Assembly: GCA_963835575.1 (NCBI GenBank) | Contig: CAWIGG010000004.1 | Coordinates: 992,001-1,056,000, forward strand | Reading direction: 5' to 3' | Source of the DNA: an uncultured Spirochaetota bacterium | GTDB taxonomy: Bacteria; Spirochaetota; Brevinematia; Brevinematales; JAOACQ01 | Length of the DNA: 64,000 nucleotides | Part shown: one piece after another, positions 21,106 to 64,000 of the stretch | Position numbering within the stretch: the first letter of the stretch is position 1 | Layout of the letters: each line of letters starts with the position of its first letter | Translations under genes and position numbers: made by a program | Notes under the pieces: model-generated | The model's input: the letters and a program-made list of their open reading frames with translations, nothing else | Told to the model about the DNA's origin: nothing | Database searches by the model: none

Positions 21106-21382
21106 AGTCATCCGGGAGAATTTAAAAAATGAAGAATTTGCCATTTTATATGAAAAAGAAAAAATAATAAACAAAATAGCCTGCGCGGTTGTGGACATGA
21201 GGCAGAGACAGGGATTAACTCAGGAAGAATTGGCTGAAAAGGCCAATACATCGCAGCCGGTTATCGCAAGGCTGGAAAGGGGAGCCGATTCAAGAATCCC
21301 GTCATTAGAACTATTAGGCCGTATTGCGCATGCTCTTGGTAAAGAAATAGTCATAGATTTTAAAACTACTTCACAGCATTAG
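21083..21382 (+). CDS. XRE-family HTH antitoxin
   Basis: GLTQEELAEKANTSQPVIARLE. Overlaps the toxin 3' end, with AGGAGG RBS. Confidence 0.88.
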   Translation: MKPITLDEVIRENLKNEEFAILYEKEKIINKIACAVVDMRQRQGLTQEELAEKANTSQPVIARLERGADSRIPSLELLGRIAHALGKEIVIDFKTTSQH

Positions 21383-33418: not shown

Positions 33419-33581
33419 ATTCTGTTTTTAATGAAGAGAGCATCTTGTTTTTGGAGGTCTGCCGAAAACTGTGCGAGGGCAGGCAGTAAAAGAGAAGACA
33501 AGACACTTGCAATGACAGACATGGCGGCGAGACACTTAGATTAAAGTTTACAATTAAACAAAATAGAGGAGGACACATTTT

Positions 33582-34169: not shown

Positions 34170-34232
34170 TTCGAAAAAATTGAATTTTTAACGGAATTGA
34201 GAACGGGTATTACTATAAAGTTTGATTTATGT

Positions 34233-35444: not shown

Positions 35445-35484
35445 GGGCGTTGTGCGGAGAAGGGGTTTGACAGGAGTATATTGT

Positions 35485-43000: not shown

Positions 43001-46000
43001 CCGAATACAGTTACGACAGCGCGGGAAGGATAACGGAAACGAGGGAGTATCCCGCGGACAATTATTCACAGGCGAGGAAAACGGATTATCAATATCACCA
43101 GAACGGAAGGCTGAAGCGCAAAGTATTGTATGATTTTTCCGGCCCGGCGCTGGAGGACACGTCCTATTCCTACGACTTCCGGGGGAACGTCATTAATAAA
43201 ACGGACAACCTAAGGAATACCGCTTTTATAACTTTTTATAACGCCTACGGCGAGAAAACAGAGGAAAGCACACTCTGGAACGGAGAGTCATCGGACAGGC
43301 ATTACAGCTATGACGCCGCCGGAAGACTTTATCAGACCACCGGCGAACTGGGCAGTGTGACGACTTATACATACGGGGATTTCGGGCAGACGGCGACGAA
43401 GGGGATATCGTACAGAGGAGACGTACAGCCGTACGTCTCTACGAGTTATTTTTATGATTCACGGGGAAATGTAATTACAGAAACCGTATATGGGATGACC
43501 CCCTCCGGCTCCCCCTCAGGCAAGGGGGAGAGCCGGCTATTGTCTTATACCACGAGCTATCAGTACGACGGGTGGGGGAACCGCACAAACACCGTATATC
43601 CCGACGGGAGTTTTGAAACATCCGAATATGACGGGTCCGGGCAGAAGATAAACGAGACCGACAGGTACGGATACCGGACGGCGTATGAATACGATGAGAA
43701 CGGCAGGGAGACAAAACGGACATCCGGCACGCCCAACGGGAACCTGATAACTGAGACAGTTTACGATAATTCCGGGCGGAAGATTTCAGAGACAAGCCAT
43801 GGGGAAACGGGACCCTCAAGGACCGCGCAGTATCAATATGACAGTTCGGGAAGGCTGATCAATCAGCAGATTGGGGACGTGTCATCCTCGACAGGGTACG
43901 ACGCCTTCGGGAATAAAACATGGACAACCACCCCCGGCCCCTCCTTAAATAAGGAGGGGAGCAGTACCTGGTATTACCAGTACGACGCGGCGGGAAGGAC
44001 GACCGTCAGCATCGACGGAGAGGGGAACAGGACGGAGACGAGCTACGGATTTGACGGCGATTGGAGGCTGACGGTAACTACCACCCCCAACCCCTCCTCA
44101 GGCAAGGAGGGGAGCCGGAAAATTATTTATGACGGGTTCGGGAATAAGATTGAGGATGTTGACGCGAACGGGAACAGCGAATATTACCAATATAACGCGG
44201 CCGGCAAGCCGACGGTATATACCGACAGGAACAGCAATCAGACTGTATATATTTATGACTCTCTGGGAAGACAGACCGCGACTGTCGACGCGAACGGGAG
44301 CGTATTGTCGAACGTGTACGACAGCTTTAATAATATAATTGAGGTCGTTGACAAGGAAGGGCGCCATCTTTACAGGGAATTCGACTGGGCGGGAAGGATG
44401 ATATGGACGAAAGACGCCTTAGGTAATGAGGCGAGATACGAATACACAACCACCCCCAAACCCCTCCTTGGCAAGGAGGGGAATCCGCTTGGGTATGAGG
44501 TTGAGGTCTTCACAGACGCGGAGGGGAACAAAGCAACCACATATAAATACGGCAAGATGACGCTGGCTGTTCAGGACGCGCTAGGCAATATCACGAGCTA
44601 TCAATACAACGCCTTCGGCGAATTAACGGCGACGGTCGACCCGAAGGGGAATACGACAAGTCTTACATATGACTTGCGGGGCAACAAAACAGGTGAAACA
44701 ACGGCTTTAGGCTTCAGCACGACATATCAATATGACAATAACGGCAACGTGATAAATGAGATCAACGGCGAGGGCTGGATAAAAACGACATACAACAGGA
44801 ACAACCAGCCAGTGAGAAAAGATTATAGCGATGGAAACACAAAAAACTTCCTCTACGATTCTTTGGGAAGGTTGACAAGAGCGCGGGACAATTTCAGCGA
44901 CTATTCATATCTTTATGATAATAATGGAAGCTTGACTAACAGGTATGATAATATCAATAAAGAGACGCTGGCGTATGAGTATGACGGGAACGGGAACCGC
45001 GTTAAAATGACTGCTCAAGATAAGATTGTAAATTATGATTATGACGCTTTAAATCAAATTAAGAAAGAAACGGTATTAACCACGAAGATCACGAAGGACA
45101 CGAAGGAAGAAATTAATGTGGCCTCCGGCTTCATAACGAACCTTTCAATTGATTACAGTTATTCTCCTATGGGGAGGGTCACGAATAAGACATATTCTTC
45201 GGGGCTGGTCGTCAATTATGAATATGACCCTATTTACAGGCTGATGAAAATAAACAACACGACCAATGGATTGTTTTTATCATCGTTCGGGTATACATAC
45301 GACAAAGTGGGGAACAGGACAAAGGAAACGGCCCGCGAATCCACGCGAATAGGCACGAATGGGGATGGTTCGGCCTCCGGCGGGGAACGGGTGTCGGCGT
45401 TTCTTTATGATAAGGCGTACAGGCTTGTCAAGGCCGATTATAGTGAAGGTAAGTTCGAGGAATTCGAATACGACAATTCAGGTAACCGGCTAAGGAAGAC
45501 TTCAAATTTAGACGGCTCTAATACCGTTACGACCGGCTATGTCATCGACAACGACAACAGACTCCTCTGCGAACAGAAGCCTTCCGGCAATATCAGCTTT
45601 ATTTATGACCGCGCTGGACGGATTATCAAGAAAGTAGAAGGGGATAAAGTAGAACGCTATCAGTACAACCAGCGCGACTTGATGACGAAGTACACCGTCG
45701 AGCAGAACGGCAGTATCACTTCCGTAAGTGAATACACCTACGACATCAACAACCTCCGCACCGTTAAGAAAGAAACCCCTGAGACGCCGGGAAGTGTCGG
45801 AGATAACACAACACGCTTTACCTATGACGGAGACAATATATTATATGAAGGCCCGTCTTTTTATTTGAATAACATCTTTATCAATAGTTACGAAGCGGAA
45901 ATACAGCCGCTGAGGACGGCGGTCTATGTAAAGGACGCGCTGGGAAGCGTGAGGGGCGAAATCTACGACAACCCGCTCCCGCCTGTAGAGTCTGGCGGCT

Positions 46001-47847
46001 CTGGAATCGCGCTGAAAGAATTTAATTATACCGCCTTCGGGGAAATGCTGGCTATAGGCGATCAGATTGCAATAGACAACGATGCTAAAAAAGGCATTTC
46101 TTATACTGGACATTATTTTGATAAAGACACAAAATTATACTATGCCCGCGCCCGCTACTACGATCCGGGCATAGGGCGGTTTATTACAAGTGATCCGATT
46201 CAAGACCCATCGAAGAGATATGCTCCCGCCGGGCTGAACAGGTATGTTTACGGAGATAACTCGCCTCTGCGTTATATCGACCCTGAAGGCCAATTCGGGT
46301 TGGACGATCTCATAGCAGGAATCGTGGGCGGAATTATCGGAGCGATCAGTAATGTTATTGCTGATATAGCCAGCGGGGACTATAAGGACATTCTTCTTGA
46401 TTCCATACTCGGCAGTACGGCTGGATTTATAAACGGCGTGGTGGAGCATTATGGAATACCGATGTATATATCGTTCAACACAAGGGGATTCGGCGCCGGA
46501 GTGGGCTACAACTTAGGCGGGGTTGTCAGCGTCGGCGCGGGAATTCATTCAGACTGGAGCGGACAGAATTACGGTTTCAGCGTAAACGCCGGACTTGGCG
46601 GTGTTGATAAGTACAAAGGCCTTAGTCTGGGATTCTCGGCGGGCATTGACTACGGCCCTGAAGGCCAGAAGAGCTACTTCGGGTTTAACGCCGGCGCAGG
46701 ATCGATTAATTTCGGCGCTAACTGGAATTATGTTAACGGGCAATACGCCGGTTTCGGGGTTAACGGCGGTTTTGGCGGGGACATCGGTAAAGGTTATTCA
46801 CTCGGACTTAACCTTGGAGCGAACTTTGACGCGAAGGGCAATTACTCAGGCGGCAGCGCAGGAATAAATATCGGGTATAATGAGAGGATTAAAGATTCAA
46901 AGGATTCAATGCAGTATAACGGAAGTCTGGGCATAAATTTCAGCGCGGACGGAAAAGTAACTCCTTACGCTAATTTTACCGCGACGAGGTGTATTAATAT
47001 TCAGAAGAATGCTGAAACGGGGAAGAAAGCCGGGAATAAGACGGCTAACGAAATTGAAATGGAGCGGCAGGGCTTGCAGCGGGATATGGCCGAGAGAATG
47101 AAAACAACTGTAATGAGTATGGAAGCCGGGATGGAAAGACCGGAAACGCCGGGAATGATGGTAATCGGCCAGAGTGTGAACGATGCCAATGACAACCAGA
47201 CTGCGGGCGATGCGATGACTGCCGGGAACGAGAAAGTGGCGGCGGCGAAAGCGGCGTATAATCAGGAAAAACAGCAGGCTATTCAGAACGGGACGCTGGG
47301 GCAATTCTATAAACGGGAAATGCTTGAAAATCTTACTTTTAACCAGGATACAGGATATTGGGTAACAACAATAGACGGGCAGACAATAAATATCGGCAGA
47401 ACAAATATTGATTTAGATTTCAGCACAACCGCAACCTATACTTTAGATCAAAGTAAGGAACATATCTACACGGTTGTTTCAAATATGACTGATGATGCAA
47501 TTATTGGGTTTGCCAACTTCACAAACCATAATGAAGGCTTCGTTGTTACCAGCATGTGGCGAAATACTAATGATCCTCATGGTCATGGGACTGCTTTTGA
47601 TATGGTATTCGGAAATAACACACCTGTTTATGCGGCTGAAGGTGGTATAGTAACTACTGCTGGGAATTATGGAGGAGCCGGAATTATGATTACAATTAGC
47701 GGGACAGATAATTTAAAATACACTTATATGCACAACAATCAGCTATACTATAGTGTAAATGCAAATGTTGATGCTGGGAATAAAATTTCTTTATCGGGTG
47801 GTACGCCAAATTATGCGCCACATTTACATTTCCAAATTGGTAGATAA
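37039..47847 (+). CDS. Secreted Rhs/YD-repeat polymorphic toxin (3602 aa) with C-terminal M23-like peptidase
   Basis: Signal peptide, PG-binding-like N-domain, GDTVDPVTGEL, many YD repeats, core end NSPLRYIDPEG (DPEG at 46279-46290), Gly-rich linker, and C-terminal PVYAAEGG...YMH...PHLHFQI. Confidence 0.92.
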   Translation: MKSKSLAAALLLTCFLVLVYAGTKIALQINGKKVDIAAQNDSRNPYLYNTRLRDIQAKLNKVLSFNLTNYAPIEENGFYNKETEAALEQFREMYYKKYSLQRYYAFSAEDAVEPSSVEGLLDREIPAAADFAREYQEGMKLKNGDPAKYYGNSAWDEVLRIEKGMDGDTVDPVTGELSKTIPLYQTPAGNDHLMPIQLTARYGSQYSGNCGLGDNWYLTESYSLWFSYEKNEMIVQDGSGISQKFNFTNGGFSRDTNNNTDGGLFLNVMLDGALGTEGSTICVITARGETMIFECADNKGQDSVSNVIESISTNSLEVYGYCIVEDLRIYEVTNYTRDFMWSLKTNISVSNYGPTIKMGLYADSSNALDMTMTNSAYTNFSDWLNNGHQTVTGQKMICDKEEFKNKVWKLSDTSEGGWSVSYYAAPLATNAIEFVTNWIWGGAPLSNCTQSDTNFDMRVKVNTNIVYTQGTSYSFRRQPMGQAGIYAGYVLTNSMNRFGSVKSYSYDGFQKLLSINSYSPGGTEIDGVSITYSPAGEKGFIKVITTGLASSANGVITFSYTGNQPDHQLLDTAVVMMDGKADAHRMAYHSELLFGPGSPDGVKLSNSIFSNYSALTNSFTYITNEISFITSNIGELVQQNYVYFWEMYTNITETITHNGINTTTNISSSLFYDDKYYNNSKDYYDLLVQFMESQLPDLISNISSLTDQISNYNSGDLFPRLALLDSHIDSAGPWQEYRYGSFDTNMFGVTNRESAFRTTIVRKQGAECRLDYSGGYTEYHNFSGNTFKFHYDINQTNYDERHVDRIVYPDNSTVSFGYDKKGNITAVTNEINNAYSYGYDDFGNVTNKSMPGRNWYYEYNSVIGRYLGRPTKIVQPDHTVYTMAYDENGEMTNQTLKANDADQGKTLVQVFFSPLSANGFVKTNRDMYGSETVYTYDGSHSPVSVKNPDGGVTAYINDSFGKPLIENRSNLVTNICVYDSRGNIVEQGIAGLNHSFTEYDAAGRRLSSTDPMSNKTIYEYGAGNSLAGVIFPSGEEVRYSYDGDGNKTNEAYYAQSGFTIANKSIVYAYDPEYRLTNKALVQDGETFNYSFQYDAAGNMTLQTAESVLPDGNVPAGVSNSYAYDAISILTNQSDLISGKNISYYYDPMGRLTFENRTVTNGSGYGFSLSNTYDILGRNTASFSFTNGAAVIMTSNDYQDNDRVTVKIDRYGNQSVNYMDFRNNVTNLQYSVFNPLTEENELYTHSYIYDTLGNKTEEIYPDGTRQKWQFVFGNRLLKESGRYSDESAAAWKTYSRDAAGRVTAVNDFENKTWGKSYNSLGRLSSETDPDGRQIFYITDLWGNPMTVQQGSRRRDISYNILNKPVTVNYGDGAADSALYDAMGNVVQSMPGGASNLQTVSRYDNEGKKTYEAGFGLETYFAYDAQGNLIYKKAATAPSNHPQPLLNKEGSRTWTYAYDACGRITEEHLPDGTFISHDYAVSNGLLIETVSGPKRHNTSAADTTVNTYDQMDRLIRSQVCDDGLEAACDIGFFAGKGLISGKVFDRAGLPVKEVRPGNKIKNYKYSPEGRVTNEENEAGEVKSSVYDKNGNLTYMTDFDGNSFSNTYYNSGKLMKSLEPGNAVTSYYYDAYGNMNKKVLPDGSTWLFETDARGRTVKETNPFGGTAAFEYDALGRKMAETGPGGSYTAYDYDGNGIPTGIETQGNDGENAVKISAAVDGFGETNRVEYPTTPSPSSGKEGSQGLIVTYQYDNMGRVTNKTTTPNPLLNKEGSRTTRYKYREDGRLKRTDNPDGTAEMYAYSAAWLLTNRTVLGDTNKGDLPPKRVTAYYYGGYGDGDVRPYVSTGGFGDVECAVDYRGIVTASYYDKAGRLTNRSETAGTEPRNTITIYGLTNINNLFYRTMETWKEETHSRASLQMEWSKTVTDFRGNVLKVYRMEKGQELLTADNTYNAAGKLVSEVRQEDLGSPETRYEYGANGALSKKTEPSGLITEYSYDSAGRITETREYPADNYSQARKTDYQYHQNGRLKRKVLYDFSGPALEDTSYSYDFRGNVINKTDNLRNTAFITFYNAYGEKTEESTLWNGESSDRHYSYDAAGRLYQTTGELGSVTTYTYGDFGQTATKGISYRGDVQPYVSTSYFYDSRGNVITETVYGMTPSGSPSGKGESRLLSYTTSYQYDGWGNRTNTVYPDGSFETSEYDGSGQKINETDRYGYRTAYEYDENGRETKRTSGTPNGNLITETVYDNSGRKISETSHGETGPSRTAQYQYDSSGRLINQQIGDVSSSTGYDAFGNKTWTTTPGPSLNKEGSSTWYYQYDAAGRTTVSIDGEGNRTETSYGFDGDWRLTVTTTPNPSSGKEGSRKIIYDGFGNKIEDVDANGNSEYYQYNAAGKPTVYTDRNSNQTVYIYDSLGRQTATVDANGSVLSNVYDSFNNIIEVVDKEGRHLYREFDWAGRMIWTKDALGNEARYEYTTTPKPLLGKEGNPLGYEVEVFTDAEGNKATTYKYGKMTLAVQDALGNITSYQYNAFGELTATVDPKGNTTSLTYDLRGNKTGETTALGFSTTYQYDNNGNVINEINGEGWIKTTYNRNNQPVRKDYSDGNTKNFLYDSLGRLTRARDNFSDYSYLYDNNGSLTNRYDNINKETLAYEYDGNGNRVKMTAQDKIVNYDYDALNQIKKETVLTTKITKDTKEEINVASGFITNLSIDYSYSPMGRVTNKTYSSGLVVNYEYDPIYRLMKINNTTNGLFLSSFGYTYDKVGNRTKETARESTRIGTNGDGSASGGERVSAFLYDKAYRLVKADYSEGKFEEFEYDNSGNRLRKTSNLDGSNTVTTGYVIDNDNRLLCEQKPSGNISFIYDRAGRIIKKVEGDKVERYQYNQRDLMTKYTVEQNGSITSVSEYTYDINNLRTVKKETPETPGSVGDNTTRFTYDGDNILYEGPSFYLNNIFINSYEAEIQPLRTAVYVKDALGSVRGEIYDNPLPPVESGGSGIALKEFNYTAFGEMLAIGDQIAIDNDAKKGISYTGHYFDKDTKLYYARARYYDPGIGRFITSDPIQDPSKRYAPAGLNRYVYGDNSPLRYIDPEGQFGLDDLIAGIVGGIIGAISNVIADIASGDYKDILLDSILGSTAGFINGVVEHYGIPMYISFNTRGFGAGVGYNLGGVVSVGAGIHSDWSGQNYGFSVNAGLGGVDKYKGLSLGFSAGIDYGPEGQKSYFGFNAGAGSINFGANWNYVNGQYAGFGVNGGFGGDIGKGYSLGLNLGANFDAKGNYSGGSAGINIGYNERIKDSKDSMQYNGSLGINFSADGKVTPYANFTATRCINIQKNAETGKKAGNKTANEIEMERQGLQRDMAERMKTTVMSMEAGMERPETPGMMVIGQSVNDANDNQTAGDAMTAGNEKVAAAKAAYNQEKQQAIQNGTLGQFYKREMLENLTFNQDTGYWVTTIDGQTINIGRTNIDLDFSTTATYTLDQSKEHIYTVVSNMTDDAIIGFANFTNHNEGFVVTSMWRNTNDPHGHGTAFDMVFGNNTPVYAAEGGIVTTAGNYGGAGIMITISGTDNLKYTYMHNNQLYYSVNANVDAGNKISLSGGTPNYAPHLHFQIGR

Positions 47848-47863
47848 TGGGAGGATACCTTTA

Positions 47864-48628
47864 ATGAAACACTTTCTAATTTTTTGCCTGATTTTTATTT
47901 TTGCCGAATTGTACAGCCAAGTCAAGTTAAATGTGGTAGCAAAGACAGGTTTGTTTTTGAGAGATAAAGCAGATAAAAATGGAAAGATATTAACTCAAGT
48001 TCCCTATGGTTCTTCTGTGGATGTAATCAAAAAAGACAGAAAATTTACATTTGATAATATTAATGGTAATTGGGTATTTGTTGAGTACAACAAATTAAAA
48101 GGTTATATTTTTAGTGGTTATTTGTCTGACTTGCCTGCACCAATCATAAATAGTAGCATTAAGGACTATTTTATAAAGCAGATAAAAGTTGAAAAAGTTA
48201 TTAGCTCCAACTTTATTATTTACAATGAAACCAATCATTATACGAATGCCAGTTATGTAACCGTGCTTTTTGGATATGATATTGTCCAAGATTATGTGGA
48301 TGCGGGAATTAAAGAAGGAGAATACGAAGCGGGATTGTATTATAGCACATATTTGTTCAAAAAAAGAAAAATAGAGGAAGTTTTTGTTGTCTTAAAAGCT
48401 CTGGGGTTTTGTAAATACATTGACTATTTTCCAATAAGTACAATTAATTTTCCTCAAAAAGATAAAGAAAGGTATTTAATTGATAAAATTCAAGTGAAGC
48501 GTAAAAGTAATAGGATTGAAGAAATCAAGGTAATTGATTATCCCATGTCAGGTCATAGAGTTATCCAAACTTTAAAGGTTACAAACAATAATGATGTGGT
48601 GTATATTTGGGACGAGTATGGAGATTAG
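47864..48628 (+). CDS. SH3b-domain secreted protein, probable cognate immunity protein
   Basis: Signal peptide MKHFLIFCLIFIFAELYSQ and GLFLRDKA...VPYG...NWVFVEY...GYIFSGYLS. Immediately follows the Rhs gene, with GGAGG RBS. Confidence 0.75.
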   Translation: MKHFLIFCLIFIFAELYSQVKLNVVAKTGLFLRDKADKNGKILTQVPYGSSVDVIKKDRKFTFDNINGNWVFVEYNKLKGYIFSGYLSDLPAPIINSSIKDYFIKQIKVEKVISSNFIIYNETNHYTNASYVTVLFGYDIVQDYVDAGIKEGEYEAGLYYSTYLFKKRKIEEVFVVLKALGFCKYIDYFPISTINFPQKDKERYLIDKIQVKRKSNRIEEIKVIDYPMSGHRVIQTLKVTNNNDVVYIWDEYGD

Positions 48629-48924
48629 GAAAAACAAAAGATTGAAAGCCCGTAGTGGCTACTTTCAATTTTTCAAGTAAGAAATTATAAATGAAAGGGG
48701 AAATAAAGTAAAAAAGAGCGGCAGAAAGGAGAGCAAGCGGAGGGGGTTAAGCCGGTTTCCGGACGGGAATCGGTAAAACCGGATGCTTCAGGTCGCAGGC
48801 TGGACGGAGCCGGTTGATAAGACAGACTGAAGTAAAACGGATGAAGAAGCACGAAGCGATCCGGCGGTTTATGAAGGATTATTTTGACATCCGGGTGAAG
48901 GATTGAGATTATTAAAGACAGATA

Positions 48925-48960
48925 GAAGCCCCGCCGGTAGTTCCGGCGGGGCTTTTTTGT
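48925..48960 (+). terminator. Intrinsic terminator
   Basis: aagccccgccgg-tagtt-ccggcggggcttttttgt. Confidence 0.8.
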
Positions 48961-49044
48961 CATCTCCCCGGCTGGATCGCGCTGATCCGGCTGACCGGGT
49001 TGGCCGGATCGGGAGAAACCGGCGGCTTCTATAGTCCGGATGAT

Positions 49045-49073
49045 TTGACAAAACCATTGCATCGGGATATTAT
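49045..49073 (+). promoter_or_regulatory. Near-consensus sigma70 promoter (duplicated on the minus strand at ~52428-52456)
   Basis: TTGACA - 17 bp - TATTAT. Confidence 0.75.
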
Positions 49074-49133
49074 TTATTGCTTTCAGATCAAGGGGCTTAT
49101 GTTCTTATCATTGAGGTGAGAGTGGGGAAATGG

Positions 49134-49159
49134 GCGATGGCTAAACCGTCGCTTTTTTT
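49134..49159 (+). terminator. Terminator-like hairpin just before the cargo gene RBS
   Basis: gcgatgg-ctaaa-ccgtcgc-ttttttt. Confidence 0.65.
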
Positions 49160-49180
49160 ATTTATAGAGGAAAAATAATT

Positions 49181-50107
49181 ATGAAAAAAAGAAACATGAA
49201 ATACCTTAGACCCAGTATCAATATCATTACCTCAATGCTGACTCTATTATCCATGGTTTACTTACTTTTTGTAGGATTTGGAATTAAAATAATTGAAAAC
49301 GACACAGAAGGGATAATTGCTATCGTTGCAGGTTTTATAGTTTCTATCAGTTTCATTTACTGGCTATTTTTTGTTTTAATTCTTAATTTAATTCAATTTA
49401 CAATCAACATTTTTAATTCTAAAAGTATATCAGAAGAAACTGCTAATATTCATGACGCCGCTCTTAATGGAGATTTAGAAACTGTTAATAGATTAATAAA
49501 AAATGGAACTGCTGTAAATGCCACAAACGATAAAGGGTTTACTCCTCTTACTATGGCAGCCTTTAATGGACATATTAATATAGTAAAAGCCTTGTTAAAT
49601 GCAAAAGCCGACATTAATGCAAAAAATAAGAAAGGGGTAACTTCACTAATGGGTGCAACTTATAAAGGCCATTCTTATATTGCGTGGACTTTACTATCAG
49701 CCGGAGCTGATGTGAACAAAAAGTCTGAAGTGGGAACAACTGCTTTAATAGGATCGGCAGATAAAGGAAATTATGAAATAATGAGGATTCTTCTAAATGC
49801 CGGAGCAGACCCAAATGAGAGCGATAATAACGGTCTTACAGCTTTGATGATTGCAGGTTCATACGGATATACCGATATTGTAAAAATATTAATCGAAAAA
49901 GGAGCTAATGTAAATGCCTATGATGCTGGTGGAGCAACTCCTTTGATGGGGCCATCAGCAAATGGACATGCTGAAATAGTTAAACTTCTCTTGGAAGCAG
50001 GAGCTAAAAATGACTACAAAACTATCGACGGATTAACTGCGCTACAACTTGCAAAAAGTAACAAACACTTTGATATAGTTGATCTCCTGAAAAATTCTAG
50101 GAGTTAA
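49181..50107 (+). CDS. Membrane-anchored ankyrin-repeat protein
   Basis: Two N-terminal TM segments and ~6-7 ankyrin repeats (G.TPL..AA.NGH..IV..LL..GA..N). Confidence 0.9.
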   Translation: MKKRNMKYLRPSINIITSMLTLLSMVYLLFVGFGIKIIENDTEGIIAIVAGFIVSISFIYWLFFVLILNLIQFTINIFNSKSISEETANIHDAALNGDLETVNRLIKNGTAVNATNDKGFTPLTMAAFNGHINIVKALLNAKADINAKNKKGVTSLMGATYKGHSYIAWTLLSAGADVNKKSEVGTTALIGSADKGNYEIMRILLNAGADPNESDNNGLTALMIAGSYGYTDIVKILIEKGANVNAYDAGGATPLMGPSANGHAEIVKLLLEAGAKNDYKTIDGLTALQLAKSNKHFDIVDLLKNSRS

Positions 50108-50203
50108 TTCTTTGGAGTTTAAATATTCAATGTTAAATAACTTTACATGGCAATAACAATCTTTTTAAAACCATTTGTTTCTATGGGGAATATTAGCGAA
50201 ATT

Positions 50204-50947
50204 TTATTTAATAAACACAGCAAAGGGAAAATAGTAATTTCTTCTTCCTTTGATTAATTCTGGTGTTTGTCTTCCAGATGTTTCTGATATAACTTTTCTA
50301 TTAGCTAAATCAAAAGCATCAACTATATCAATAACTCTATAACCATCTTGTGAAAGATCATAATTATCAATATTCATTTCTGAGATTAAGCTACTTGAGA
50401 AATATCCGCCTTTTGAATCTTCCCCTGCACTTTCGTCAATGCGGCATGAATTGATTTGAATTAATCCAGTTTCACAATGTTCAAGATATTTTTCAAAATA
50501 ATAGCGGGAATAAGTTGAATCCTGAGACCTACGTTCGCTAAATGACAATTTATATGAATCTTGGATGATTTCCTTAAGTTTTGTTCTACAGCAATCCAAT
50601 ATTAACAATTGTTTTTTTGCTCCTTTAGTTAATTCTTTATAATCAATATTTTCATTTTGATTTAATTCTAGCATTGTTGTATTTCTTGATTCCGAAAACC
50701 AACCATGTCCACAAAAAACTATAAACGCATAATCTGCTGTAGATTGTATATTAGCTATTGTGCTGATGACTTGATTTTGAGATGGTTTTACTTTTGCAAT
50801 AATTTCACTAGAATTCCAAGCGCCACCTATTGGGGATTTTAAAAAAGATTCATAATTTTTAATATCAGCAAAAACACCCGGACAATAATTTTTTGCATTT
50901 TCTTCACCAGGATTGCCAATTAGTAAAGCATATTTTTTAATACTCAT
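50204..50947 (-). CDS. Caspase-family (C14-like) protease
   Basis: YALLIG, FCGHG (His), ILDCCR (Cys), GGYFS and GRQTP motifs. Confidence 0.85.
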   Translation of the reverse strand: MSIKKYALLIGNPGEENAKNYCPGVFADIKNYESFLKSPIGGAWNSSEIIAKVKPSQNQVISTIANIQSTADYAFIVFCGHGWFSESRNTTMLELNQNENIDYKELTKGAKKQLLILDCCRTKLKEIIQDSYKLSFSERRSQDSTYSRYYFEKYLEHCETGLIQINSCRIDESAGEDSKGGYFSSSLISEMNIDNYDLSQDGYRVIDIVDAFDLANRKVISETSGRQTPELIKGRRNYYFPFAVFIK

Positions 50948-50966
50948 TATCAACCTCCAACTAATT

Positions 50967-51413
50967 TTATATTATAAAGGAGTTTATATATTTTTGAAAT
51001 TTTAAATCATAACCAACTATATTTTCAATTATTCCGCTTGGATTCTTCCACCAATTTTTATGTCTTATTGCCATTTCTTGAACACTTAAAAACGATTCTA
51101 TTTTACTTTTACTTCCTTTAAAATATTTCCATAGATTTTCCAACAAATTAAATACAATGCAACAATAATTATCATAACGCATATATCTTTCTTCTTTTGG
51201 ATTATTATTATCAATCCATTTGCTACAAAAATCATTATCTTCTAAATATGGATATTCAATTGCGATCTGATTTATTTGCAAAATTTGGTTTTCAAGCCAC
51301 AATTCATATTGCTTGGCAATTGATTTTCTTACTGTGTAATAAGAAACAATCCAAGCTATAATTGAAGAAACAACAGCAGATATTAAAGTAGATATCGGAT
51401 TCCAGTCAATCAT
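50967..51413 (-). CDS. Hypothetical protein with N-terminal TM helix
   Basis: 148-aa AT-rich ORF in an operon with the caspase gene. Confidence 0.65.
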   Translation of the reverse strand: MIDWNPISTLISAVVSSIIAWIVSYYTVRKSIAKQYELWLENQILQINQIAIEYPYLEDNDFCSKWIDNNNPKEERYMRYDNYCCIVFNLLENLWKYFKGSKSKIESFLSVQEMAIRHKNWWKNPSGIIENIVGYDLKFQKYINSFII

Positions 51414-51461
51414 AATTTCCTTCCTATCTTTTAAATTAGTTTTTGCCGCAAATCATGATAA

Positions 51462-52271
51462 TTATTTGATTTTAAGTAAAATCCCATTTATAAAAACAAA
51501 TGAGCTGATCATAAAGATGATATTAACAATTATATACAAGAATTGAGATTTATAAATTTTACCTATTTTCTCTAATAAGGATATAATCTTTTGATTATTT
51601 TTAGAAAAATCGCTGAAATCTAATATTAGCAAAATTGCATCATATAGAGTTCTCATCAAATTATAAAAAATAAGCAATATTAATAAAACAACACCAATAA
51701 ATTGCCAAAGTAAATAAACTAAGGCCGGACTATTCCATAAGGTAAAAATCACTCTCCAATTATGAGTAATCTCTTTTTTCATAGCCAATAAATTTGAGTT
51801 ATGCTTTAAAGGATTATCAAAGAAATACAAACTTATCAGTGCAAATAACCAAATTATCAACATTAATTTCTGCCTTAATTTTATATCAGAAATATTTTTA
51901 TCTTTGTTTTTAAGAAAAATCAAATTTGTTGTTATTGAATAAAGAATTCCAAAAACAGCTAAAACTATAATAATTGAAAATATAATTGATTTGTTTATAA
52001 GTAAAAAGATGGAACCCGCTATGAGAAATAATAAAAATAATGTCATGTAAACAAATATATTATCTTTTGTATAATTATAGGAAATTGTAATTTTTACTTT
52101 ATATTCATATATTCTTTGATATATTAATCGAGTTGATAAAACTATATTTTCTTGTTTTTTGTTTTTATCCAAAAGCTTGAAAACAATTATATCAATTGGA
52201 ATGAATAAAACAGCACTGATCAATCCGGCTAAAATAGGGTCAATATTTTTACTTAACCAATCAACTATCAT
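51462..52271 (-). CDS. Multi-pass membrane hypothetical protein
   Basis: About 6 hydrophobic segments. AGGAG RBS. Confidence 0.65.
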   Translation of the reverse strand: MIVDWLSKNIDPILAGLISAVLFIPIDIIVFKLLDKNKKQENIVLSTRLIYQRIYEYKVKITISYNYTKDNIFVYMTLFLLFLIAGSIFLLINKSIIFSIIIVLAVFGILYSITTNLIFLKNKDKNISDIKLRQKLMLIIWLFALISLYFFDNPLKHNSNLLAMKKEITHNWRVIFTLWNSPALVYLLWQFIGVVLLILLIFYNLMRTLYDAILLILDFSDFSKNNQKIISLLEKIGKIYKSQFLYIIVNIIFMISSFVFINGILLKIK

Positions 52272-52329
52272 AATAAAACTCCTTTTGAATATTCGGTTTA
52301 TTTAAAAATTCATTTTGAAGACTTGTAAC

Positions 52330-54512
52330 TCCTCTATAAATAAAAAAAGCGACGGTTTAGCCATCGCCCATTTCCCCACTCTCACCTCAATGATAAGAAC
52401 ATAAGCCCCTTGATCTGAAAGCAATAAATAATATCCCGATGCAATGGTTTTGTCAAATCATCCGGACTATAGAAGCCGCCGGTTTCTCCCGATCCGGCCA
52501 ACCGGATCAGCGCGATCCAGCCGGGGAGATGACAAAAAATCCCCGCCGGAATGCCAGCGGGGCTTCTATCTGTCTTTAATAATCTCAATCCTTCACCTGG
52601 ATATCGAAATAATCCTTCATAAACCGCCGGATCGCTTCGTGCTTCTTCATCCGTTTTACTTCAGTCTGTCTTATCAACCGGCTCCGTCCAGCCTGCGACC
52701 TGAAGCATCCGGTTTTACCGATTCCCGTCCGGAAACCGGCTTAACCCCCTCCGCTTGCTCTCCTTTCTGCCGCTCTTTTTTACTTTATTTCCCCTTTCAT
52801 TTATAATTTCTTACTTGAAAAATTGAAAGTAGCCACTACGGGCTTTCAATCTTTTGTTTTTCCTAATCTCCATACTCGTCCCAAATATACACCACATCAT
52901 TATTGTTTGTAACCTTTAAAGTTTGGATAACTCTATGACCTGACATGGGATAATCAATTACCTTGATTTCTTCAATCCTATTACTTTTACGCTTCACTTG
53001 AATTTTATCAATTAAATACCTTTCTTTATCTTTTTGAGGAAAATTAATTGTACTTATTGGAAAATAGTCAATGTATTTACAAAACCCCAGAGCTTTTAAG
53101 ACAACAAAAACTTCCTCTATTTTTCTTTTTTTGAACAAATATGTGCTATAATACAATCCCGCTTCGTATTCTCCTTCTTTAATTCCCGCATCCACATAAT
53201 CTTGGACAATATCATATCCAAAAAGCACGGTTACATAACTGGCATTCGTATAATGATTGGTTTCATTGTAAATAATAAAGTTGGAGCTAATAACTTTTTC
53301 AACTTTTATCTGCTTTATAAAATAGTCCTTAATGCTACTATTTATGATTGGTGCAGGCAAGTCAGACAAATAACCACTAAAAATATAACCTTTTAATTTG
53401 TTGTACTCAACAAATACCCAATTACCATTAATATTATCAAATGTAAATTTTCTGTCTTTTTTGATTACATCCACAGAAGAACCATAGGGAACTTGAGTTA
53501 ATATCTTTCCATTTTTATCTGCTTTATCTCTCAAAAACAAACCTGTCTTTGCTACCACATTTAACTTGACTTGGCTGTACAATTCGGCAAAAATAAAAAT
53601 CAGGCAAAAAATTAGAAAGTGTTTCATTAAAGGTATCCTCCCATTATCTACCAATTTGGAAATGTAAATGTGGCGCATAATTTGGCGTACCACCCGATAA
53701 AGAAATTTTATTCCCAGCATCAACATTTGCATTTACACTATAGTATAGCTGATTGTTGTGCATATAAGTGTATTTTAAATTATCTGTCCCGCTAATTGTA
53801 ATCATAATTCCGGCTCCTCCATAATTCCCAGCAGTAGTTACTATACCACCTTCAGCCGCATAAACAGGTGTGTTATTTCCGAATACCATATCAAAAGCAG
53901 TCCCATGACCATGAGGATCATTAGTATTTCGCCACATGCTGGTAACAACGAAGCCTTCATTATGGTTTGTGAAGTTGGCAAACCCAATAATTGCATCATC
54001 AGTCATATTTGAAACAACCGTGTAGATATGTTCCTTACTTTGATCTAAAGTATAGGTTGCGGTTGTGCTGAAATCTAAATCAATATTTGTTCTGCCGATA
54101 TTTATTGTCTGCCCGTCTATTGTTGTTACCCAATATCCTGTATCCTGGTTAAAAGTAAGATTTTCAAGCATTTCCCGTTTATAGAATTGCCCCAGCGTCC
54201 CGTTCTGAATAGCCTGCTGTTTTTCCTGATTATACGCCGCTTTCGCCGCCGCCACTTTCTCGTTCCCGGCAGTCATCGCATCGCCCGCAGTCTGGTTGTC
54301 ATTGGCATCGTTCACACTCTGGCCGATTACCATCATTCCCGGCGTTTCCGGTCTTTCCATCCCGGCTTCCATACTCATTACAGTTGTTTTCATTCTCTCG
54401 GCCATATCCCGCTGCAAGCCCTGCCGCTCCATTTCAATTTCGTTAGCCGTCTTATTCCCGGCTTTCTTCCCCGTTTCAGCATTCTTCTGAATATTAATAC
54501 ACCTCGTCGCGG
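52330..54512 (-). repeat. Right arm of ~2.2 kb inverted duplication
   Basis: Reverse complement of 46979-49171. Confidence 0.95.
52863..53627 (-). CDS. Identical second copy of the SH3b probable immunity protein
   Basis: Translation identical to 47864-48628. Confidence 0.75.
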   Translation of the reverse strand: MKHFLIFCLIFIFAELYSQVKLNVVAKTGLFLRDKADKNGKILTQVPYGSSVDVIKKDRKFTFDNINGNWVFVEYNKLKGYIFSGYLSDLPAPIINSSIKDYFIKQIKVEKVISSNFIIYNETNHYTNASYVTVLFGYDIVQDYVDAGIKEGEYEAGLYYSTYLFKKRKIEEVFVVLKALGFCKYIDYFPISTINFPQKDKERYLIDKIQVKRKSNRIEEIKVIDYPMSGHRVIQTLKVTNNNDVVYIWDEYGD

Positions 54513-56195
54513 AATAATTCGCGTAAGGCGTTACCCTCCCATCCGGGCTGACGTTAATCCCTATGCTTTCATTATGAAGCATCGAATCATTAGAGCCTTC
54601 AATCCCCTGCCTGTACCCGATGTTTACGCCGAAGTTCGCTCCGGCATAATTGCCTTTAGCGTCGAAGTTCATTCCGAGGCTAAGGCCCGCATTGTAGCCT
54701 TTGCCGACATCACTGCCGATGCTTCCGTTAAATCCGTACCCCGCATACTGGCCGTTCTGGAAATTCAGTCCCGCGCCAACGCTTACCGCTCCGAATCCGG
54801 CGCTGAAGCCTATGTTGCTGCTGTTTGTACCGTTAGAATAGTAATCAACACCCGCCGAAAATCCCATGTGGAACCCGCTGTAAGGGTCGGCGCTTCCAAG
54901 CCCGGCGTTCACGTTGAAACCGAAATTAGAATTGTCCCATTTCCCATGAACTCCCGCGCCAACTGTAACGGCATTGCCAATAGAATAGCCGACTCCGGCG
55001 CTGTATCCTCTTGTCGAGAGACTTATATACAGTGGTATTCCATGCCCCGTCATTTCCATTGATGCCGCGCCTGAAAAAGCCCCAAGATTCAGATTCATGA
55101 AGTAGTCCCGCCGAAATTCATTGTCCCGTTTAACAGATCGCCTATATTTGTTATCGCCGCATTTATAGTCCCGATTACTCCGCCGACTATCGCAAGGAAA
55201 AGTTCATATATAAATTTTCCTTCGGGGTCGGTGTAACGGAAAGGATTGTTGTTGCCATAGACATATCTGTTTAATCCGGGGGGTGAATACCGCAAATCGG
55301 GGTTACTGACAGGATCGCTTGAGATAAACCGGCCCGCGCTCGCGTCATAATAGCGCGCGCGGTTATAATAAAGCTTTGAATCCTTATCGAAATAAGAACA
55401 GGTATAGGAAATTCCCTGTTTAGCATTGCCGTCAATAGTTATCGCCGAGGTTTTCCCCAAAGGCGGTGTAATCGAAAGTCTATGAAAGAGAATGAAACCG
55501 TAGTGGTATATGATAGTAATGGGGTTGTCATATATCTCGCCCCTCACGCTCCCGAGGGCGTCCTTGACATAAACGGCCGTCCTCAACGTCTGTATTTCTG
55601 CTTCGTAACCGTTTATCATAATATTATTGAGATAAAAAGACGGGCCTTCATATAATATATTATCGCCGTCGTAAGTGAAGCGGGTTGTATTGTCCCCCAT
55701 ACTTCCGGCGGTCTCCGGCGTTTCTTTTTTCAATATTCTTAAATTATTAATATCGTAAGTGTATTCTGAAAAAGCGACTATTTCCCCGTTCCGCTCAATG
55801 GTGTATTTCGTCATCAAATCGCGCTGGTTATACTGATAGCGTTCTACTTTATCCCCTTCGGTCTTCTTGACCAGCCTTCCGGCTCTGTCATAGATATAAG
55901 AAATGTTACCCGAAGGCTTTTGCTCACACAATAAGCGATTGTCGTTATCATAGACGTAGTTTATGGTAACAGTATTGCTCCCATCTAAATTCGACGTCTT
56001 TTTCAGCCGGTTACCTGAATTGTCATAAGCGAATTCCTCAAACTTTCCTCGGTCATAATCGGCCTTGACAAGCCTGTACGCCTTATCATAAAGAAACGCC
56101 GACACCCGTTCCCCACCGGAGGCCGAACCATCCCCATTCGTGCCTATTCGCGTGGATTCGCGGGCCGTTTCCTTCGTCCTGTTCCCCACTTTGTC
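53644..56195 (-). pseudogene. Orphan Rhs 3' fragment (core end, linker, M23-like tip), frameshifted
   Basis: Homologous to 45301-47847. Split into two ORFs at ~55095. A locally shifted frame at ~55440-55490 hides FDYTAFGE. Contains NNPFRYTDPEG. Confidence 0.85.
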
Positions 56196-56447
56196 ATATT
56201 GATATTCTTTTTCTCTCCCCCATGCGCGTTAAGAAAACAATTCAGGGCTGCCGGAAAAATTATTAATTATTGGCCGGTGGTACTCCCGCTTTTTAAGACC
56301 CGCGCACTCAAGCCCGCGTCCCTGGGAAAAGCCGGCAAACCATAGCCTGAGAGCTATAACCGCAAAAAACGGGAGGAATGAGATTAAGCCTCATTCCCCC
56401 CGCCGGAAATAGTTTATCAAACTGATTTGAAAAAGGCAAGAAAAGAT

Positions 56448-57425: not shown

Positions 57426-58734
57426 GATTTTCCTCCTGCGTGTTCTCTTGAGATATTATCTCTCTTGGATGGAATGCCCGGAGCATGCGTTTAAGGTCTC
57501 CTTTTACCACTCTTGTGTAGGTTTCCGTCGTGTCGAGGCTTGTGTGCCCCAGCATTTCCTGAATATAGCGGATGTCCGCGCCGTTTTTAAGCATGTGGGT
57601 TGCGCATGCATAGCGGAAGGAATGAGGGATGAGGTGTTTTTTGATCCCGGCCTTAAGGGCGTATTTTTTTATCAGGCTTCCGATGAGGTTAACTGTCATC
57701 CGCTTTTTGAAAACGGAGAGAAAGAGGGCTTTGAGGTGCACCTCTTCATCCGGGTTATGAGGCGTGCCTTCCGGGCGTTCTTTCAGGTAATCCCGGATGC
57801 GGGAAAGGGCGATGTCATTGATCGGGACAGCGCGGTCTTTTTTATTCTTGCCTTTGTAAACGGTGATAAGTTTTTCGGTAAAATCGACGTTCCCGATATC
57901 GAGGTTAACCAGTTCTTTGACCCGGATTGCCGAGCCGTAGAGCGTTTCAATGATGGCGATGTCGCGGGAGCCGTAAGGCACGCCCCTGTGGCTTTTCATT
58001 TCGATAGAGCTTATAAGGCGGTCGATTTCGGCGAGGGTGGGGATATCGCGGGATATCCGCTTCGGGACTTTTGGGATTTCCACGGATTTTGAAGGGTCTG
58101 TAAGGATGATATTTTCGGAGCAGAGGAACTTGAAGAAGTTGCGGACATTCACAAGGATATTCGCGCGGGTGGTAACGTTGTAAGGCTTTTGTATTTTGCT
58201 CTTTCCCCGGCTTCCTTTGTAAACGAGGAGATAAAGGGCATAGCCGGAAACAACTTTTTTATCTACCCGCGCGATGTCCGTTATATTATTATTTTCAAGG
58301 TATTCCAGAAAGCGCCGGATGAGCGAGCGGGTAATATCAAGGGTGCGTTCGGAAACTTCCTTTGACGAGGAGATACGGCGGATATATCTTTCGAGAAGTT
58401 CCGTAAAGGGAATTGCGTTCGGGGAAACGGAATCTCTTGAAGCTCCCGGAATAAAGTTCTTCCATTCGAGGAACCGGACGAACTCGCGGGTCTTAAAGTA
58501 CCCGGTTTTATTGGGTTTATGGGAACTCCACTCCCCGGTCCCGTGTTTAATCATGGCGAGATATTTATCCGACTGTTCCCTTGTGAAGCCGGAAAGCGGC
58601 ATATTGTTCTTCTCAAGATATTCCAGAAGCTTCCGTGCGTAAAGGGCCTTATGCTTCAAGACATTTTCCTTTAACGGCTTAAAAGCCTTCGCGTGTGTAA
58701 TGTACTCTTTCAGTACGGCGTCTTTATCAATCAT
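57418..58734 (-). CDS. Tyrosine recombinase (XerC/D-like) 1, with extended N-terminus
   Basis: YGSAIRVKEL, KGKNKKDR, HSFRYACATH and LGH..LDTTETY motifs. Confidence 0.92.
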   Translation of the reverse strand: MIDKDAVLKEYITHAKAFKPLKENVLKHKALYARKLLEYLEKNNMPLSGFTREQSDKYLAMIKHGTGEWSSHKPNKTGYFKTREFVRFLEWKNFIPGASRDSVSPNAIPFTELLERYIRRISSSKEVSERTLDITRSLIRRFLEYLENNNITDIARVDKKVVSGYALYLLVYKGSRGKSKIQKPYNVTTRANILVNVRNFFKFLCSENIILTDPSKSVEIPKVPKRISRDIPTLAEIDRLISSIEMKSHRGVPYGSRDIAIIETLYGSAIRVKELVNLDIGNVDFTEKLITVYKGKNKKDRAVPINDIALSRIRDYLKERPEGTPHNPDEEVHLKALFLSVFKKRMTVNLIGSLIKKYALKAGIKKHLIPHSFRYACATHMLKNGADIRYIQEMLGHTSLDTTETYTRVVKGDLKRMLRAFHPREIISQENTQEENHE

Positions 58735-58855
58735 ACGGTAATACCTCCTTTCAAAATATTTTGGCTCTGCCTCTCCCCCCGCTCCTACCGCTCACACTCG
58801 ATTCAAGCCTTATTTTACAAAGGTTTGAAGCTCAAAAGTGTGAGCGCTCGCAGTT

Positions 58856-61738: not shown

Positions 61739-61749
61739 GCTGTCCTCCC

Positions 61750-62115
61750 TTATTTCCAGATAACAAGGAACCGGACGGAGAGTTCAAGGCAGATGCGGAG
61801 CGTTGAGCCTGTGCCTCTGGAAATGCCATCCCAGAACAGGACAACAAAATCGCAATATTTTACCAGCTCCCTATTTCTGACAATGCCCGCAGACCGTCCG
61901 TATTTATGCCACAGGGCCGGAAACACTTTCAAGTCCAGCGCATGGGCGCGGGCATACCGCTCCGCGAGGGCGTCAGCGCCTTGAGGACATCCGCCCGACA
62001 CCACAACATCGGCGCAGGACAAATCCAGAGCGTCGAGCGTTTTCTCAAGCTTCGCATAGTCGGTAAAAGAACGCGAGCCGACAACCCCGATTTTCACATA
62101 GTTTTTATTTTCCAT
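61750..62115 (-). CDS. SLOG-superfamily protein (YspA/DUF2493-like)
   Basis: VVGSRSF, VSGG..GADALAE.YA, W...G..AG..RN and FWDG.S.GT motifs. Confidence 0.85.
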   Translation of the reverse strand: MENKNYVKIGVVGSRSFTDYAKLEKTLDALDLSCADVVVSGGCPQGADALAERYARAHALDLKVFPALWHKYGRSAGIVRNRELVKYCDFVVLFWDGISRGTGSTLRICLELSVRFLVIWK

Positions 62116-62225
62116 TTATTCCTCCCGCCTTCATGCTGGCCGCTATGCCGCTTTTGAAGACGCCCGGTCGTACCCCCGCTGATACCCTTTTGTCAAGTAC
62201 TTTTTTAGATTTATTTTACTGATAC
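61998..62225 (-). repeat. Element head, repeated in inverted orientation at 63770-64000
   Basis: Identical to the reverse complement of 63770-64000 except one short patch (cgaccggg vs aaggggtttcc). Confidence 0.93.
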
Positions 62226-62563
62226 TTTCAGTACAAAGACTTGAAAAAAGAAAATATCCGGCCTTTGATTAAAAGCCTTAATGACTTTCATAACTAAACA
62301 CAAACAGGCCATGTCGTTTTGGCATGGGTTTTGACATTCGCAGAAACCCATGCCAAAACGGAGAAAGCTTTAGAATGGAATAATAAGACATCTCCGTTCC
62401 GGCATATTTTTTGACGGCCGCAAAAAGATATGCCGGAACGGTGTTACCTCAATTCTTAAAATTATTAGTTTATTAACAATTCAATAATGTCTTTAAGTGT
62501 TTTGCAGACTCTTATTATTTGACAAAATATCCATATGGGTATATATTATTTTAGGATTGAAAG

Positions 62564-62944
62564 ATGGAATTAAAATTTTTTACGTCAAAAGATGGAAAAC
62601 AACCTGTTCTTGATTTCATACGTTCTTTAGAAAAGCCGGACCGTGCTAAAATATACGGATGTCTTGACAGTATAGAAATGTTAGGTTTTGAAACACCCAG
62701 AGTAGAATTCCGGCAAATTGAAGGAAAGCTCTGGGAAATCAAGATAAAGACTGTTTCGGGCGGATATAGAGTATTTTATATATCCATCCATCATCATATC
62801 CTTGTTTTACTTCACGTTTATAAGAAACAGTCGCAAAAAGCGCCAGCAAAAGAAATAAAGACAGCGAAAACCCGTTTAAAGGAGGTAATTGAAAATGAGG
62901 GCGATTACATTAAAGGAAGCGATAGCGGAAGAAATGAAAGATGA
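62564..62944 (+). CDS. Type II TA toxin, RelE/ParE (HigB/Gp49-like) family
   Basis: Paralog of 20752-21105 (shared PRVEFRQIEGKLWEIKI). Confidence 0.88.
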   Translation: MELKFFTSKDGKQPVLDFIRSLEKPDRAKIYGCLDSIEMLGFETPRVEFRQIEGKLWEIKIKTVSGGYRVFYISIHHHILVLLHVYKKQSQKAPAKEIKTAKTRLKEVIENEGDYIKGSDSGRNER

Positions 62945-63191
62945 GGAATTCGCAGTCCTTTTTGAGAATGAGAGAATAATAAATAACTTAGCTAAAACTA
63001 TAGTGGAGATGAGGCAAAAAAGAGGCTTGACACAAGCTGAATTAGCCGAAAAAGCCCATACTACACAGCCGGTAATAGCTCGTCTGGAAAAAGGTTCTGA
63101 TTCGCGGATTCCATCATTGGAGCTTTTAAACCGAATTGCTCATGCGCTTGGCAAAGAAATATTCATTGATTTTAAGCCAGACCATCATTAA
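62895..63191 (+). CDS. XRE-family HTH antitoxin
   Basis: Paralog of 21083-21382. Confidence 0.88.
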   Translation: MRAITLKEAIAEEMKDEEFAVLFENERIINNLAKTIVEMRQKRGLTQAELAEKAHTTQPVIARLEKGSDSRIPSLELLNRIAHALGKEIFIDFKPDHH

Positions 63192-63882
63192 AACACTCTT
63201 CTAAAAACAGTAAAGCCCTGTTCTTTTTAAAAGCTAAAGTATAATCGCTTTAATATAAGGACAGGGCTTTTTTATTTAAAATGGAAAGTCAGCCTCTCAT
63301 TTAAAACAAAAAGATTACTTCACTCTGGTATGGGTTTTGCATCCGCATAAACCCATACCAGAGTGCCGAAAGCTTTTCGCAGTAAAAAAGGAGTTTTCTA
63401 ATTATGAATAGACAAATAGTCGTCTTCACTTTGGCACGGGTTTTGACATTCGCACAAACCCGTGCCAAAGTGCTGATGGCCTTTCTATTATAATAATAAA
63501 TGGGTATTATTCATTAGACAGAAGCCTTTCTTCATCGCCTTATGTTTTTAAAAAAAGCCCTCTTCGCCCTGGCATAGTTTTTGACGTCCGCAAAAAACTA
63601 TGCCAGGGCGTACAAATCTTTTCAAAACGAAAAAGAGAAATTTATCAAAATCCTTTGTTCAAAGGCGGTTATCAACAAACCTTTGTTTTTAAAGAAAGAA
63701 TTAATTATCTAACCGTTCACTTTTAAAACATTCCTTGTTATTAAATGCAAGCCATGTGTTTTCAATCCCGTATCAGTAAAATAAATCTAAAAAAGTACTT
63801 GACAAAAGGGTATCAGCGGGGGTAAAGGGGTTTCCCGTCTTCAAAAGCGGCATAGCGGCCAGCATGAAGGCGGGAGGAATAA

Positions 63883-64000
63883 ATGGAAAATAAAAACTAT
63901 GTGAAAATCGGGGTTGTCGGCTCGCGTTCTTTTACCGACTATGCGAAGCTTGAGAAAACGCTCGACGCTCTGGATTTGTCCTGCGCCGATGTTGTGGTGT
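63883..64000 (+). CDS. Second copy of the SLOG protein (truncated by the window end)
   Basis: MENKNYVKIGVVGSRSFTDYAKLEKTLDALDLSCADVVV, identical to the start of 61750-62115. Confidence 0.88.
   Translation, partial: MENKNYVKIGVVGSRSFTDYAKLEKTLDALDLSCADVVV

Follow-up and report, generated by a model that had tools for sequence, protein, structure and literature searches.

Exchange of the C-terminal tip of Rhs and CDI toxins has been ascribed to homologous recombination since 2009, and a circular intermediate has been proposed, the source of which is left open in the accessible part of that report (PMC2935791). In the known Rhs orphan arrays (Jackson et al. 2009, PMC2935791; Koskiniemi et al. 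2014, PMC3967940), start-less fragments consisting of core plus tip lie with a partner gene behind a full-length rhs gene, and the old tip has been displaced downstream. The locus described here is alike in both respects. Unlike the tips of those arrays, as far as the accessible text of the two reports describes them, each tip here comes bundled with a primase-ATPase plus recombinases, and its start lies at a fixed junction.

Arrays of orphan cdiA-CT/cdiI modules contain integrase and transposase genes among the orphans, and site-specific recombination as well as insertion of new modules into cdiA has been suggested (Ruhe et al. 2016, PMC4927057). The accessible passages of that report do not name an element, a primase, a family of recombinases or a target site, and the words 'XerC' and 'recombinase' do not occur in its main text. 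Polyimmunity loci lie beside XerC/D recombinases, which were proposed to aid accumulation (Zhang et al. 2012, PMC3482391); these loci hold immunity genes only, and 'primase' is absent from the available text of the report.

We analyzed a stretch of 64,000 nucleotides from an uncultured Spirochaetota bacterium (the window), in which a full-length rhs gene (the resident) is followed by an element of this kind. The contig (C4) extends to window position 74873, and window numbering is kept throughout. A first-pass annotation had read, on the minus strand, the order SLOG, primase, two tyrosine recombinases, Rhs fragment, immunity gene, non-coding module and cargo, and the open reading frame listing and Pfam matches bore this out, with an SH3 gene at the place of the immunity gene (Table 1). 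The unit that emerges, a primase with an MCM-like ATPase, one or two XerC-like recombinases, a start-less tip and a partner gene, is a widespread family.

Table 1. Features of the rhs locus and of the two element copies, in window coordinates.
Feature	Position	Strand	Remarks
S8 peptidase / Ig-repeat protein, 3175 aa	23891..33418	+	upstream of rhs
Resident full-length Rhs, 3602 aa	37039..47847	+	Pfam RHS_repeat; Peptidase_M23 at 3520-3600; Rhs-associated core 2997-3085
Candidate left junction in rhs	45292..45354	+	codon 2752, Y-x-Y-D-K-V-G-N-R; onset of homology to both orphan fragments
SH3 gene directly 3' of resident tip	47759..48628	+	Pfam SH3_3; putative immunity, from position
Non-coding module	48629..49171	+	terminator-like hairpin; strong promoter-like site ahead of cargo
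Ankyrin-repeat cargo gene	49181..50107	+	Pfam
Copy 1 cargo	50204..52271	-	caspase-family gene and two genes without family; 26% G+C
Inverted copy of non-coding module	52330..52862	-	97% identical to first copy
Second SH3 gene	52863..53732	-	identical to resident's
Copy 1 orphan rhs fragment	53644..56201	-	54512-53644 identical to resident tip, remainder more distant
Element-side spacer	56202..56447	-	ends at candidate right junction (56204-56202)
Tyrosine recombinase 2, 325 aa	56448..57425	-	Pfam; R-K-H-R-H-Y catalytic motifs by eye
Tyrosine recombinase 1, 438 aa	57418..58734	-	N-terminal extension; catalytic motifs by eye
DnaG-type primase, 960 aa	58856..61738	-	CHC2, DNAG_N and Toprim, fused to PF27228 P-loop domain
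SLOG (YspA-related) gene	61750..62115	-	Pfam YAcAr
Head-to-head spacer	62226..63769	+	Gp49-like toxin gene 62564-62944; HTH gene 62889-63191; five related hairpins
Copy 2 start	63770..64000	+	junction 69794-69796; tip end 72454; SH3 gene to 73622

The resident Rhs has an N-terminus that resembles a signal peptide by eye, and its C-terminal tip is an M23 peptidase (Pfam). From its position and by analogy, the SH3 partner is a putative immunity protein. Three tips (A, B and C) were found in all, each with H-x(4-6)-D and H-x-H motifs. Tip A belongs to the M23 family (Pfam); tips B and C matched no Pfam tip family, tip B matched no PDB sequence, and from the motif B and C are putative zinc peptidases. 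The predicted roles are cell-wall hydrolases for the tips and immunity for the SH3 partners. The promoter-like site in the non-coding module is TTGACA-17-TATTAT at 49045. Only two full copies of this module are present in the genome, and an Rfam search of 33000-64000 gave no family match.

The rpoC gene (named from its translation) ends at window position 19611, a second contig (C6) starts with the third tip and an SH3 gene and reaches rpsL at 7248, and rpoC and rpsL are at most 200 bp apart in 4/4 genomes of the same genus. These positions point to a single island: the entire cluster probably occupies the gap between rpoC and rpsL, with an assembly gap between C4 and C6. At both island ends (20519-20698, and 3600-3900 of L002), 14-bp tandem repeats come after a copy of the 3' end of an SH3-family gene, hinting at remnants of older cassettes. 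The island contains two Gp49-like/HTH toxin-antitoxin pairs, at 20752-21382 and 62564-63191, which are 72% identical; the toxin gene at 62564-62944 is presumably of the RelE type. Other repeats were also seen. A short palindromic repeat (CCCCTCCT...AGGAGGGG) occurs six times within the open rhs frame at 41351-44490 and a seventh time at 36512, with nine matches in the whole genome, and a 95-nt repeat occurs six times in the intergenic region upstream of rhs (34227-35471), several copies being spaced 174 nt apart.

The order of genes upstream (23891-36510), a giant S8-Ig gene, a discoidin-like gene and then Rhs, is repeated in three relatives (G271, G174 and G276). S8-PTS likewise have an S8 peptidase gene, placed upstream of the genes for a polymorphic toxin and its immunity protein. 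As described in the accessible text (Li, Tan and Zhang 2022, PMC9424270), their peptidase has a single domain and their toxins are BetaH toxins of Gram-positives, whereas here the S8 domain is part of an Ig-repeat protein of 3175 aa and an Rhs is the toxin. The S8-Ig, discoidin-like and Rhs genes might form a module, possibly an undescribed one, by which these Rhs proteins are secreted or processed.

The 960-residue protein is predicted to be a primase-helicase with an MCM-like fold. For a model of residues 350-960 (mean pLDDT 64), the Foldseek matches listed were all MCM helicase chains; the best match of the ATPase-domain model had an E-value of 2.9e-7 and a TM-score of about 0.3. The Pfam name of the domain PF27228, MTBMA_p00010_2nd, presumably derives from a gene on the small replicon pME2001. 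This plasmid functions as a replicon, according to the accessible text of one report (PMC8609365). The domain content and the predicted fold suggest that the element may be self-replicating. A SLOG gene lies ahead of the primase in two other loci as well (L147 and L148).

Tyrosine-recombinase catalytic motifs, as in integrative elements that use such an enzyme, were recognized by eye in both recombinases. Each scored below the curated cut-offs for the host proteins XerD (222 and 228 vs 329.6 bits) and XerC (202 and 226 vs 335 bits), and below that for the IntI-type integrases of integrons (100 and 111 vs 265 bits). The best NCBIfam match of recombinase 2 was PRK01287, under all cut-offs. Both PF27228, an ATPase domain, and PRK01287 'XerC', an annotation of enterobacterial recombinases, are names to which no described system is attached.

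Some integrative elements and phage satellites insert into a gene and rebuild its 3' end. The present element resembles them in its tyrosine recombinase and its predicted primase-helicase module, and its E. coli relative (below) also in a short core common to the junctions; unlike in those, the 3' end supplied here is a different toxin domain. It has the integrase and the primase/helicase module of phage satellites (PICI, P4-like), but no capsid, terminase, packaging or capsid-redirecting families were found among the open reading frames scanned with Pfam. Likewise, a Pfam scan of 22 + 10 open reading frames revealed no relaxase or type IV secretion genes, which sets the element apart from ICE and IME. 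RIT elements have three adjacent recombinase genes, and the units here have two.

The earlier annotation had also described two mirrored arrangements, at the tail and at the head of the element, and the beginning of a second copy. All were found. At the tail, 46979-48884 matches its inverted copy with 0 mismatches, and six substitutions and indels of 1 and 9 nt follow between 48884 and the end of the mirror at 49171/52330. At the head, 61998-62225 is mirrored at 63770-64000. Copy 2 continues beyond the window and is full, in the opposite (+) orientation, from 63770 to about 73620. The cores of copies 1 and 2 (56202-62225 in copy 1) differ by one SNP and one 10-column block, and the tip and SH3 gene of copy 2 both differ from those of copy 1, the tip of which is that of the resident. 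The copy 1 Rhs fragment is frameshifted near 55100 and is split into two open reading frames (55095-56189 and 53644-55098). Five hairpins of ~45 bp (62305-63615) flank the toxin-antitoxin pair in the spacer between the copies, and a sixth lies behind copy 2 at 74095; the five spacer hairpins were absent from the ten related loci compared.

The proposal that copies accumulate tail-to-tail and head-to-head was not supported. Every other multi-copy locus that we inspected is a direct head-to-tail tandem array, and the inverted orientation is a local exception. Reversing 50150-62225 restores an ordinary direct array, so that one later inversion would account for both mirrors; a single unit (about 50150-62225) would have been inverted after the array had formed. 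We considered it quite improbable that the inverted arrangement is an assembly artefact, a chimeric path through repeats in an otherwise real family. There are near-identical repeats of 6 kb and 1.9 kb through which such a path could run, contig C4 terminates inside the array, and the arrays elsewhere are direct. However, unique spacers of 3.2 kb and 1.5 kb part the arms, and the arms differ in small indels, substitutions and cargo; a fold-back chimera is expected to give an exact palindrome. Even less likely is an invertible switch in which the recombinases would flip 45292-56204 and thereby exchange the fragment fused to the resident rhs. The junctions at 45292 and 56204 are in inverted orientation and two recombinases with catalytic motifs adjoin them, but the same tip is present on both fragments, that of copy 1 is frameshifted, and inversion was seen at no other multi-copy locus inspected.

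We compared the resident with the two orphan fragments to locate the junction. Homology of the orphans to the resident rhs starts at 45292 (resident), 56204 (copy 1) and 69794 (copy 2), earlier than 46979, and from 45456 to about 46900 the homology between resident and fragment is weak (38-81% per 100-column window, mostly 55-80%). To the left of the junction, copies 1 and 2 are identical at 240/240 nt and the resident matches at 12/60; to the right, 55-56 of 60 nt are common pairwise to the resident, copy 1 and copy 2. The first difference between the two copies, at 56201/69797, is at most 3 nt from the start of rhs homology. Element-side identity therefore ends where rhs homology begins, as would follow if one element had displaced two different rhs ends, both at a single site. 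In a distant element (L150, primase 35% identical) the fragment starts at the same codon, 2752; in a closer relative (L147, primase 64% identical) it starts about 155 codons earlier. No inverted-repeat core was visible at the window junction, and to its left only TAT is in common. Perfect identity between the tips of the resident and copy 1 begins at 46979 and not at the junction, which points to homologous exchange as well. A CGCGAAT repeat with a 10-bp period lies in frame within rhs at 45333. We rejected its three copies just inside the junction as arm sites for the integrase, because the sequence is a genome-wide short repeat with 60 matches.

The C-terminal region of the primase was found in 28/400 other genomes of the same phylum, often in two or three copies. 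Matches were present at a minimum of 71 GTDB loci (counted in the best 80 of 91 stretches), at 10 metagenome loci, on 37 plasmid records and in 4,262 cluster representatives at E-values up to 1e-30. The nearest named relatives are mostly from Spirochaetota. The primase had no match in 50,697 phage records or viral contigs, and one Atlas cluster of its family contains viral members. Among the 81 GTDB and metagenome loci, many of which are cut by contig ends, recombinases chained behind the primase numbered two or more in 60, one in 10 and none in 11. Leaving out 43 loci with no recombinase or with less than 1.2 kb of room, we scored the remaining 38, which are not independent because several come from one genome. 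A fragment of Rhs core or YD repeats was present within 2.5 kb behind the recombinases on the same strand in 16 and on the opposite strand in 0; six more had an Rhs core upstream, and 16 had none on either side. The association of homologous elements with toxin fragments, on which the first-pass annotation depended, was found repeatedly in other genomes.

Individual loci illustrate the range of this association. In G344, four primase-recombinase units lie behind a full-length Rhs, and the boundary is common to five orphans; contig ends of this array were joined assuming circularity. In Enterobacter, the core occurs three times behind a CdiA gene; we detected no DNA or protein homology of the orphans to cdiA there, and thus mapped no junction. 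In Janthinobacterium, the core lies behind an FG-GAP/Rhs gene. The position of the fragment boundary varies between lineages. Several variants were seen as well. Arrays of family f15 in G061, G114 and G353 (L043-L051) consist of a tandem core with one recombinase and a ParA-like gene, placed among large non-Rhs toxin-like open reading frames and partner genes. Another candidate site is found on the orphan side of L085 (13728-13771), where a perfect 9-bp inverted repeat surrounds 11 bp at an NNP-DPTG motif and is absent on the full-length side. At L098 (2267-4937), the primase is interrupted by three adjacent recombinase matches on the opposite strand, probably an inserted RIT-type element.

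Alleles with and without the element could be compared in E. coli. One primase-xerC type was present in 56/5,426 complete E. coli genomes, and the ansP-vgrG-rhs-pptA locus was its site in all five strains inspected. This relative has one recombinase, and its primase family matches that of the window at only about 30%. In strain CREC-2, a full-length rhs is followed by two units, the last orphan consisting of tip Z and its partner gene. In three other strains, the full-length rhs itself ends in tip Z, and the primase and xerC are absent (empty alleles). Empty and filled alleles match at 1493-1499 of 1500 nt on the left and at 2198/2200 on the right, and the insert of the filled allele, which is 16,625 bp long and lies inside rhs, holds the two primase-xerC units. 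Sequence in common with the empty site amounts to 15 nt at the left junction and to 0 nt upstream of the right one. The link to tip exchange that had been proposed for the window thus gained support, in that the comparison shows displacement of a tip at a 15-bp core. A single event may lie behind all three empty alleles, and they could be deletions at a short repeat; integration or excision both fit.

In E. coli, Shigella and Lonsdalea, 13/13 element-side junctions have the sequence CCC[GT]AT-GAYCCG-ATAGGG, in which the two arms of an inverted repeat flank 6 bp, the layout of a tyrosine-recombinase site. The left arm was present in 0/15 other sites. ATAGGG was present in 28/28 E. coli, Shigella and Lonsdalea sites, which are not independent of one another, vs 1/5 K-12 rhs sites, a small control in which lineage effects are possible. 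Two further candidates were rejected. The R12/MP1 pair, considered as a second site-specific event, differs by one unit and has its crossover 770-800 bp upstream of the site, indicating that homologous recombination acts too. The 8,758-bp circular Shigella record NZ_CP055112.1, considered as an excised circle, holds one unit that starts and ends inside the primase; it is colinear with a chromosomal tandem array and is either a circle formed by homologous recombination or a collapsed repeat. Two small plasmid records with the element were typed as non-mobilizable.

We think it probable, with considerable room for doubt, that the element integrates site-specifically inside rhs, its own tip and partner gene replacing the old tip, which is pushed downstream. 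A unit composed of tip, immunity gene, cargo, primase-helicase and recombinases would excise as a circle, be copied by the primase and the MCM-like helicase, and re-integrate at the junction. One site would lie at the 5' end of the tip and its counterpart in the resident toxin gene; once the recombinases had joined the two, the new tip would be fused in frame and the old tip and immunity gene would land, silent, behind the recombinases. Arrays would arise from repeated integration. Copying of the excised circle or amplification of the array by the primase-helicase would fit the near-identical cores with different tips, and homologous recombination between tandem copies would then shuffle, duplicate and delete units.

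The tips might instead reach the resident only by RecA-type recombination within the common rhs stretch, the element being a replicon with silent tips and its recombinases serving to resolve dimers of the circle or to act at another site. We regard this as rather unlikely, although several observations fit it. The identity tract that copy 1 has in common with the resident begins at 46979, the R12/MP1 crossover is off-site, the boundary in L147 is displaced, NZ_CP055112.1 is one unit cut inside the primase, and 1.7 kb of homology is on offer in the window. It is also the published model, as set out in the accessible text of the reports (PMC2935791, PMC3967940). On the other hand, the E. coli crossover falls within the first 15 bp of an 84-bp stretch that is only 74-84% alike, the conserved inverted repeat is confined to the element side, and each lineage has a single common boundary.

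The orphans of the known Rhs arrays are in the same orientation as the full-length gene, which is true of copy 2, whereas copy 1 is inverted. Core fragments whose length varies through homologous recombination and the lack of a dedicated recombinase are likewise features of Rhs arrays, whereas here there is one boundary and there are two recombinases per unit; a single boundary with recombinases was also seen in G344 and E. coli. Neighborhoods of the type xerC-primase-symE-rhs presumably occur in proteobacterial annotations, and the gene cluster may already have been pointed out in other work. A full-text literature search, with subscription journals mostly beyond its reach, yielded no description of the element. 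The main text of six further reports, searched by key terms, gave no mention of it, and their supplements could differ (PMC3150448, PMC8138268, PMC10539506, PMC4428218, PMC11278526, PMC11606950). In the main text of a classification of tyrosine recombinases, 'Rhs' and 'primase' are absent.

For tip change in Rhs and CDI systems, the element family offers candidates for the enzyme, for the site and for the replication module. The E. coli relative, in which the core is defined to 15 bp and empty and filled alleles occur naturally, makes the question of tip change testable. The family would add a group of recombinases with target sites that lie within coding sequence, and a bacterial protein that joins a primase to an MCM-like helicase. 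We see an even chance that it represents a widespread class of replicons, lacking capsid and conjugation genes and built from a fusion of DnaG primase and MCM-like helicase with one or two Xer-like recombinases, in which the attachment site came to lie inside polymorphic toxin genes (Rhs, CdiA and others). If this is true, every integration, from spirochaetes to E. coli, would supply the host toxin with a fresh tip and its immunity gene while the old pair is kept, and the element would be a dedicated engine of toxin-tip displacement that is costly to lose.
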